In this document: positions 25,020 through 25,736 of the stretch, piece by piece
How positions within the stretch are numbered: position 1 is the first letter of the stretch
Layout of the letters: the number at the start of each line of letters is the position of its first letter
NCBI GenBank assembly: GCA_964016885.1
Contig: OZ024744.1
Span: 68,572,001-68,636,000 of the forward strand
Direction of reading: 5' to 3'
Origin: Eledone cirrhosa
Taxonomy: Eukaryota
Length of the DNA stretch: 64,000 nucleotides
Notes under the pieces: generated by a model
What the model was told of the DNA's origin: nothing
Database searches by the model: none
What the model saw: only the letters and a program-made list of their open reading frames with translations
Position numbers and translations under genes: made by a program

Positions 25020-25736
25020 TTGGTCTGTCCCAGTCATTCATTGAGCAACATCGGTGAAGTTGGCACCCTTAACTCGCAGTTGGGTGCGGATGCATTCATG
25101 TATATATGTGTGTGTCCGCATGTATCTGTGTGTTTCTAAATATATTAATAACTCCCTCTGGTCGAGCAATCTTTGAAGTGTGGGGACAACTGGAAAGCTT
25201 CCATTACTCGTACTTCTCGCCTTCTTCACTACCTCTTCTACGGCCTCGATATGAATACCCCCTCCGCCTCCGTGGTATTTTCTTCGTGGTTATAAGAGGC
25301 TTAGCTCTGTTTCTCGACCGTTATATCGCGTGACTATCTCCCCCTCCGCCTTTTGGGATTCTTTCTCACGTCGTGTAGACGCGTTCTTGAGACTAGTAAA
25401 ATGAGGTATCCTCTTGATAAGTTGGCAGACCTCGCAAGGACTCTATATCTTTGATATATTGTTTTTGTTTATGCCACGAAACTACGTAGTCGAGGAATTT
25501 AGGAGCAGTTTAGGTATGATACATTTTATTACTAATTATATCTAAATGTTTCTTCTCTCTTCATAATGTATTTTTAACTCTGATACTGGTTCAGTCTGGT
25601 TCAAACTGAATTGGTCTGTCCCAGTCATTCATTGAGCAACATCGGTGAAGTTGGCACCCTTAACTCGCAGTTGGGTGCGGATGCATTCATGTATATATGT
25701 GTGTGTCCGCATGTATCTGTGTGTTTCTAAATATAT
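25020..25736 (+). mobile_element. ORF-less 591-bp unit with ~125-bp terminal direct repeat and a U3-A8 hammerhead (25409-25496)
   Basis: 25021-25145 equals 25612-25736; tcctc-TTGATAA-g tggca..tgcca c-GAAA-ctacgtag-TC-gagga. Confidence 0.78.

Follow-up and report, generated by a model that had tools for sequence, protein, structure and literature searches.

The unit and its hammerhead

We analyzed a 64,000-nt stretch of Eledone cirrhosa DNA (positions 68,572,001 to 68,636,000 of contig OZ024744.1, hereafter the window), in which a non-coding element at 25020-25736 precedes a (TA)n microsatellite (Table 1). The original prediction, made from the letters alone, had described a 1.2-mer with near-identical terminal direct repeats of about 125 bp, no credible ORF, a single U3-A8 hammerhead outside the repeats and an end in (TA)n, and all of these features were borne out. 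The repeats are 127 nt long and lie 591 nt apart, and the longest stop-to-stop frame within the element is of 86 aa. The closed 591-nt unit carries 6-15 stops in each of its six circular frames, which rules out an endless ORF round a circle, though 591 is divisible by 3. The 3' end of the element reaches into a TA tract that spans 25731-25870, and a short TA run is present on the 5' side. Because the flanks consist of (TA)n, a target-site duplication of 4-5 bp is unreadable.

Table 1. Features of the element and its target (positions in the window).
Feature	Positions	Strand	Basis
Complete non-coding unit of 591 nt (position 1 of the unit = 25020), the predicted sequence of a circular RNA	25020..25610	+	Period 591; head-to-tail arrays genome-wide
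First copy of the 127-nt redundancy: 0.21 extra turn, up to the variable 5' truncation	25019..25145	+	Identity to second copy; 5' ends differ from copy to copy
Second copy of the redundancy, bearing the fixed 3' end	25610..25736	+	100% identical to 25019-25145
(TA)n microsatellite target	25737..25870	.	Repeat analysis of the window; TA at the 3' end in 38/38 young loci
Hammerhead of type I with a U3-A8 core, a stem I of 5 bp and a stem II that is bulged and extended; cut predicted after 25491	25409..25496	+	Motif and family conservation
Perfect 10-nt palindrome forming helix III	25481..25490	+	Self-duplex of -12.9 kcal/mol
End site B, unit position about 552, 79 nt past the cut, unused by the window copy	25560..25571	+	1,937 exact junctions of B with (TA)n
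End site A, unit position about 126, used by the window copy	25724..25736	+	1,101 exact A-(TA)n junctions

In the hammerhead, stem I is formed by 25409-13 and 25492-96, the core UUGAUAA occupies 25414-20, and stem II (25421-26/25473-77) has one bulge and a long hairpin extension; GAAA at 25478-81 leads into the palindromic helix III (25481-90) and the GUC of the predicted cut. As a motif in a single copy, taken alone, this is weak. No hammerhead family in Rfam matched the window copy at gathering and E-value thresholds, the 126-nt local fold at the motif was unremarkable (z = -0.84), and a loose hammerhead descriptor gave 4 matches in 128 kb (the window, both strands). We judge the motif to be real because its core and stems are invariant between two families that are only 74-77% alike. 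The core and stems I-III are unchanged between the young family to which the window copy belongs and an older sister family, and the stem II extension varies and still pairs: 98.7% of its cells were paired, a level that 8 of 500 shuffles reached, with one pair altered on both sides and six altered on one side. Drawn from an alignment of 20 out of 58 distinct sequences that represents two lineages only, the covariation support is modest; the conservation indicates that the ribozyme is under constraint. The exact core was present in 75 of 84 motifs from loci L070-L119, in an extraction that itself demanded near matches, and the exact hammerhead 31-mer occurs 6,585 times in the genome.

The palindromic helix III is predicted to allow two hammerheads to fold as a dimer, as in the model described for such hammerheads (PMC4209133); of nine retrozyme dimers tested in a recent preprint (10.64898/2026.07.22.740005), one is reported to have cleaved. 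Because it has only one hammerhead, the window copy cannot itself release a unit-length RNA by two cuts and is therefore a product; it would not count as an active retrozyme, whereas many loci of its family would. One 1.2-mer alone cannot separate a circular template from a linear multimer.

Copies of a young family end at two fixed 3' sites and at scattered 5' positions

A search of the same genome (3.0 Gb) yielded 517 candidates, of which 40 were scored; 39 loci were taken from the listed matches and L037, a duplicate of L036, was dropped. The remaining set of 38 loci is biased toward near-identical, full-unit copies, and a separate 0.82-unit copy near L040 was excluded from the counts. All 38 loci proved to be head-to-tail arrays with a main arm of 1.2-5.8 units and a 3' end in a TA run. 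Circular permutation of other copies, which the original prediction had tied to a circular template, was found at one end of the arrays only: the 59 5' ends were scattered over unit positions 56-591, but the 3' ends lay at two sites, A (about 126) and B (about 552). The 5' ends were clustered in places, with 10 of them in one 20-nt window, a density that 25 of 5,000 uniform simulations reached. Their scatter is at odds with the fixed terminal repeats and common ends of an LTR retrozyme or TRIM, the first of two readings that the prediction had set against its own. Local duplications of array copies were seen at L036/L037, L070 and L071.

Exact junction 26-mers of both ends recur genome-wide in the numbers given in Table 1, and the controls gave 0. 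From these counts and that of the hammerhead 31-mer, we estimate at least about two thousand recent insertions; the family is a young one. We infer that A and B are reverse transcriptase (RT) initiation sites of the Penelope type.

The older sister family has a 590-nt unit, is about 94% alike internally and 74-77% alike to the young family, and was sampled by fetching 30 loci (L090-L119) from 1,660 candidates. A further copy of it lies at L056:1600-2010, and the young copy at L056 was inserted into the TA run of an older sister-family copy. The sister family uses sites equivalent to A and B, with exceptions: its 20 two-armed loci, scored by eye, comprised 15 A+B, 2 A+A, 1 near B+B and 2 with another end.

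Two-armed insertions pair one A end with one B end

Seventeen of the 38 loci were one-armed (14 A, 3 B), and the window copy would be such a product, primed at A and stopped after 1.21 turns. The other 21 loci had two arms placed head to head, and in 21 of 21 cases one arm ended at A and the other at B. The same pairing was observed in a position-ordered sample that listed 52 A and 100 B sites in the first 129 Mb of contig C1, where 25 neighbours lay within 10 kb of each other: 23 pointed outward and 23 of 23 were A+B (2 of these overlap the 38-locus set), and the remaining 2 were local duplications on the same strand. Among 20 further loci anchored on B, 13 were two-armed, all 13 with A opposite. 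A+A and B+B pairs were thus absent from the young family in the 38 loci and the contig C1 sample. This rule shows one RNA with two start sites, not a circle; it needs no circle, since a protein dimer on any one RNA would produce A+B.

Each insertion repeats one haplotype across exact cut-site junctions

We compared the units of each locus over 76,734 nt, equivalent to about 130 units, and scored those sites that two or more units of a locus covered. Across the 38 loci, 41 within-locus variants were present in all units, 43 in one unit, 4 in two units and 0 at intermediate frequency. Of the 41 fixed variants, 12 were private to one locus and occurred at 10 of the 38 loci, privacy being judged on 38 out of at least about 2,000 loci; 5 of these 12 were present in both arms (L039, L056, L058, L060). 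Private fixed variants amounted to 5.3e-4 per monomer base and single-unit variants to 5.6e-4 per base (4.2e-4 without the noisy locus L064), and such a match would follow if new arrays can each be founded by any single unit. In a second sample of 18 loci, chosen by position rather than by identity and with L070-L071 left out, units differed by 0.47% within loci versus 2.6% between loci, and sites with at least three units gave 22 fixed, 12 single and 0 intermediate variants.

Arrays crossed the predicted cut site without change within 8 nt in 143 of 144 cases. Arms reach 3,450 nt, whereas a single read of a cut linear monomer would be limited to 79 and 245 nt; a cut linear monomer read once is therefore excluded. 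The argument for a circle is the recurrence of single haplotypes, up to seven times, across exact joins. The proposal of the original prediction that RT ran more than once round a circular RNA is favored by the family data, the ring itself being deduced from the variant patterns and the clean junctions.

Variants in two units were of several kinds. One of the four was in adjacent units (L036). Two of the four, at L041 and L045, fell in opposite arms, a placement consistent with gene conversion or with a linear template of mixed units. Locus-private variants in two non-adjacent units or in one unit per arm were seen at L041, L045 and L060; these may reflect a mixed template, gene conversion, or a single damaged base of the template that was misread repeatedly.

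Predicted fold of the putative circle and sequencing runs

Folded as a closed circle, the unit had a predicted energy of -169.2 kcal/mol (z = -4.5, 40 shuffles). In this predicted fold the catalytic strand is buried, the active fold lying 8.4 kcal/mol above the minimum; site A is unpaired (mean unpaired probability 0.80) and site B is mostly paired. Since the unit contains five runs of four or more T, transcription of multimers by Pol III looks unlikely; no promoter was found.

Among the sequencing runs listed as containing the unit, none was an RNA run. In sequencing runs X4 and X6 the unit was present as one closed contig of about 620 nt. These contigs were rejected as evidence of a circle, because tandem DNA assembles alike, and both runs also contain pieces of the Penelope-like element (PLE) described below at similar low depth. 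In X1, X4, X5 and X6, which are other samples, the majority letters of the unit differ from the window at 25076, 25210 and 25423; two of the differing letters match a lineage variant carried by 11 loci.

A Hydra-like Penelope element as candidate helper

The genome also contains a coding, Hydra-like PLE with several open frames of 758 aa; a first look returned 88,614 candidates, a figure that is not a copy number. Among 16 of its loci, the motif CxCx5C was present in 16, DKT in 15, RWR (not RWK) in 14 and YIGMT in 15. The Hydra clade is described as having a C-terminal endonuclease (EN), RWK and DKT motifs, a CxCx5C linker, a (TA)n target and a hammerhead (PMC8557442), and the coding element is assigned to it, putatively, by motif match only; a Pfam scan of the helper protein gave no match. 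The element carries a hammerhead-like motif 5' of its ORF, has TA junctions and inserts into (TA)n. Its two ends are fixed, at about 20-33 and at 96 nt past this motif. Exact junctions of these ends numbered 3,824 and 5,582, and a rare variant of one end gave 34 matches. In the first 80 Mb of contig C1, 27 of 27 outward pairs joined the two different ends (a+b), and 4 other neighbours were not outward. Because it obeys the same two-end rule as the 591-nt family, we regard this element as a plausible candidate helper.

In a blastn comparison of the 591-nt unit with three neighbouring PLE loci and 16 PLE loci, the matches listed were all of low complexity (TG/TA-rich) or 13-14 nt long. Other PLE families are also present in the genome. 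At L087 (G000:C1:41166923-41173917), a two-armed insertion of the 591-nt family lies inside a Hydra-like PLE that is itself two-armed; it occupies the microsatellite-like tail of this host element, the ORF of which is split into two frames. The Hydra-like unit includes roughly 2 kb of TG/TA microsatellite-like sequence (L120-L149, L162-L177). Most paired ends of this PLE on C1 are only 130-220 bp apart, giving thousands of tiny fold-backs.

Other features of the window

A 314-bp tandem array of 2.9 units at 58375-59289 begins after a TA run and has a hammerhead motif with a canonical core in each unit; it is probably a second, shorter retrozyme family. L075, L091 and L101 have related motifs in their flanks, and the core is U3-A8 in two of these motifs. 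At 9235-13123, the window contains degenerate tandem units of 170-214 bp with what we take to be a SINE-like appearance. Finally, an inverted repeat at about 23000-23362, with arms of at least 170 nt that are 95% complementary and 23 nt apart, may be another two-armed insertion.

A proposed model of reverse transcription round a closed RNA

The 591-nt family is a young, non-coding hammerhead retroelement of the kind known as animal non-LTR retrozymes, and we consider it likely that a borrowed Penelope-like RT/endonuclease copies it from one RNA of unit length, which is probably a covalent circle. The transcription, cleavage and ligation steps, like the identity of the helper, are what we infer for this family. 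Transcripts of arrays with at least two hammerheads would be cut, probably by hammerheads that dimerize through the palindromic helix III, and the monomer would be ligated into a circle whose fold conceals the ribozyme. A (TA)n-targeting Penelope protein would then nick one or both strands and prime cDNA synthesis at internal site A and/or B, and the enzyme would roll round the ring by strand displacement until it stalled; where both strands had been primed, the two cDNAs would join head to head. More specifically, and with caution, we favor the reading that every insertion records in DNA the passage of a Penelope enzyme, probably dimeric, round one covalently closed ring of RNA, with a separate fixed priming site for each nicked strand of the target.

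The same helper might instead have copied a linear multimer, transcribed from a parent array and left uncut, with priming at internal A and B sites. A PLE is reported to use unprocessed RNA in vitro (PMC11167929), such a template predicts clean cut-site junctions, and two variants were common to one unit of each arm. However, a linear multimer offers no route by which a new variant could become fixed in 6-7 units, or by which arrays could regrow after truncation, yet 12 private fixed variants were present at 10 of the 38 loci. Furthermore, non-duplicate loci had no single-unit variant in common apart from two: 191G>A, itself a lineage variant as well, and a deletion in a homopolymer that the dropped duplicate L037 also has. 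Such a template would also have many A and B sites on offer, yet the young family is without A+A or B+B pairs. We therefore regard a linear multimer as unlikely.

A cut linear monomer would likewise yield one haplotype per insertion if the enzyme jumped from the 5' end to the 3' end of the same molecule, and 7 of the 59 5' ends fell within 20 nt past the cut, versus 2.0 expected. This cluster is ambiguous. All seven ends lie at 481-491, at the edge of a predicted helix, and none at 473-480; equal clusters occur far from the cut, at 350-369 and 240-259; and the second sample had 2 of about 33 ends in the interval. End-to-end jumps, as in work on R2, usually leave added or lost bases, but 143 of the 144 junctions were exact. 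Jumping on a cut monomer is, in our estimate, decidedly improbable.

Growth or homogenization of the arrays as DNA after insertion, by unequal crossing-over and gene conversion, or by a DNA rolling circle, is very improbable. The four two-unit variants, one of them in adjacent units, are of a kind that it could produce, as are the local duplications noted above, but variants of intermediate frequency were found in neither sample. The arrays bear the marks of target-primed reverse transcription in their fixed 3' ends, ragged 5' ends and 5' inversions, and the hammerhead is conserved on the matching strand.

That the unit is the pseudo-LTR of a coding PLE and the copies are its truncated forms, the second reading that the original prediction had set against its own, is hardly probable at all: the hammerhead does have PLE-type features (PMC4209133), a preprint derives retrozymes from pseudo-LTRs (10.64898/2026.07.22.740005) and truncated PLE ends are very common in the Eledone cirrhosa genome, but arrays of up to 5.8 units are without an ORF, no copy at 88 loci (38 + 20 + 30) runs on into a common coding region or has an ORF for RT plus GIY-YIG within the unit or joined to it, and a short-stem pattern with the same helix III gave 12 matches, the matched text resembling the two non-coding families. 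An ancestral origin of the unit from a PLE end is possible.

Copying from a closed ring, if correct, would make this family evidence on a genome scale that target-primed reverse transcription can proceed by rolling circle. Because the coding Hydra-like element follows the same one-of-each rule, the model would further account for the inverted pseudo-LTRs, and for the 'tail' on one side, that are seen in Penelope elements generally. With a young family, thousands of insertions, two start sites and an ORF-bearing candidate helper, the circle proposal is directly testable, and the value of the system lies in this test of mechanism, not in a new kind of element, the class being already known.

Comparison with known systems

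A circle as the template for reverse transcription of more than one unit has been proposed since 2014 (PMC4209133, PMC7229834), and the mechanism is called unresolved in a recent preprint (Li, Clavereau and Pollet 2026; 10.64898/2026.07.22.740005). In vitro, a PLE has been shown to start reverse transcription at two internal sites, and the 'tail' is the stretch between them (PMC11167929); for this element, PAc, hammerhead cleavage is reported to be dispensable for insertion in vitro, and start sites to be alike on both strands (PMC11167929). Inverted arms and one-sided tails are known in PLEs (PMC8557442, PMC3846280). None of the papers listed in our literature searches contained a per-locus haplotype test of a circle, one-of-each end pairing or a twin-priming analysis of retrozymes, and none of those listed for octopus described a hammerhead.

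The closest coding relatives in behavior are EN+ PLEs of the Hydra clade (Craig et al. 2021, PMC8557442) and Anolis PAc (Frangieh et al. 2024, PMC11167929), which as described there have (TA)n targets, 5' truncation, partial tandems, an inverted 5' arm, two RT start sites and a 'tail' at one end. In contrast to these, the 591-nt family is without an ORF and has up to 5.8 units per arm, its 'tail' measures 165 nt versus 30-40, and its genomic copies have one start per arm, where PAc in vitro is reported to have no strand difference. The PLE-type minimal hammerheads (Cervera and de la Pena 2014, PMC4209133) are described with the features found here, namely covariant U3-A8, a short helix I, a bulged long helix II, G10.1-C11.1 and a small palindromic helix III. 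Unlike them, the 591-nt unit stands alone and has helix II plus an extra hairpin of about 45 nt.

Plant LTR retrozymes, as presented in the preprint (10.64898/2026.07.22.740005), are also non-autonomous hammerhead elements with circular RNAs of similar size, but their hammerheads are of type III and sit within fixed LTRs, and they have PBS/PPT and target duplications of 4 bp, whereas the hammerhead of the 591-nt family is of type I and lies outside a repeat whose length varies by copy. Animal non-LTR retrozymes (Cervera and de la Pena 2020, PMC7229834) are described, like the present family, as non-coding tandem units with one type I hammerhead each, without LTR features and co-occurring with PLEs. 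The 591-nt unit differs from them in size, at 591 nt versus the 170-400 nt of the circles shown experimentally, although it lies inside the 51-972 bp range given in the preprint (10.64898/2026.07.22.740005), and in its U3-A8 core and long stem II extension; nor did the unit have a sequence link to a PLE terminal repeat among the three PLE loci or families compared. Two fixed ends, two-armed insertions and per-locus haplotypes are absent from the retrozyme descriptions that we compared. Altogether, the 591-nt family is a new family within a known class, the animal non-LTR retrozymes.
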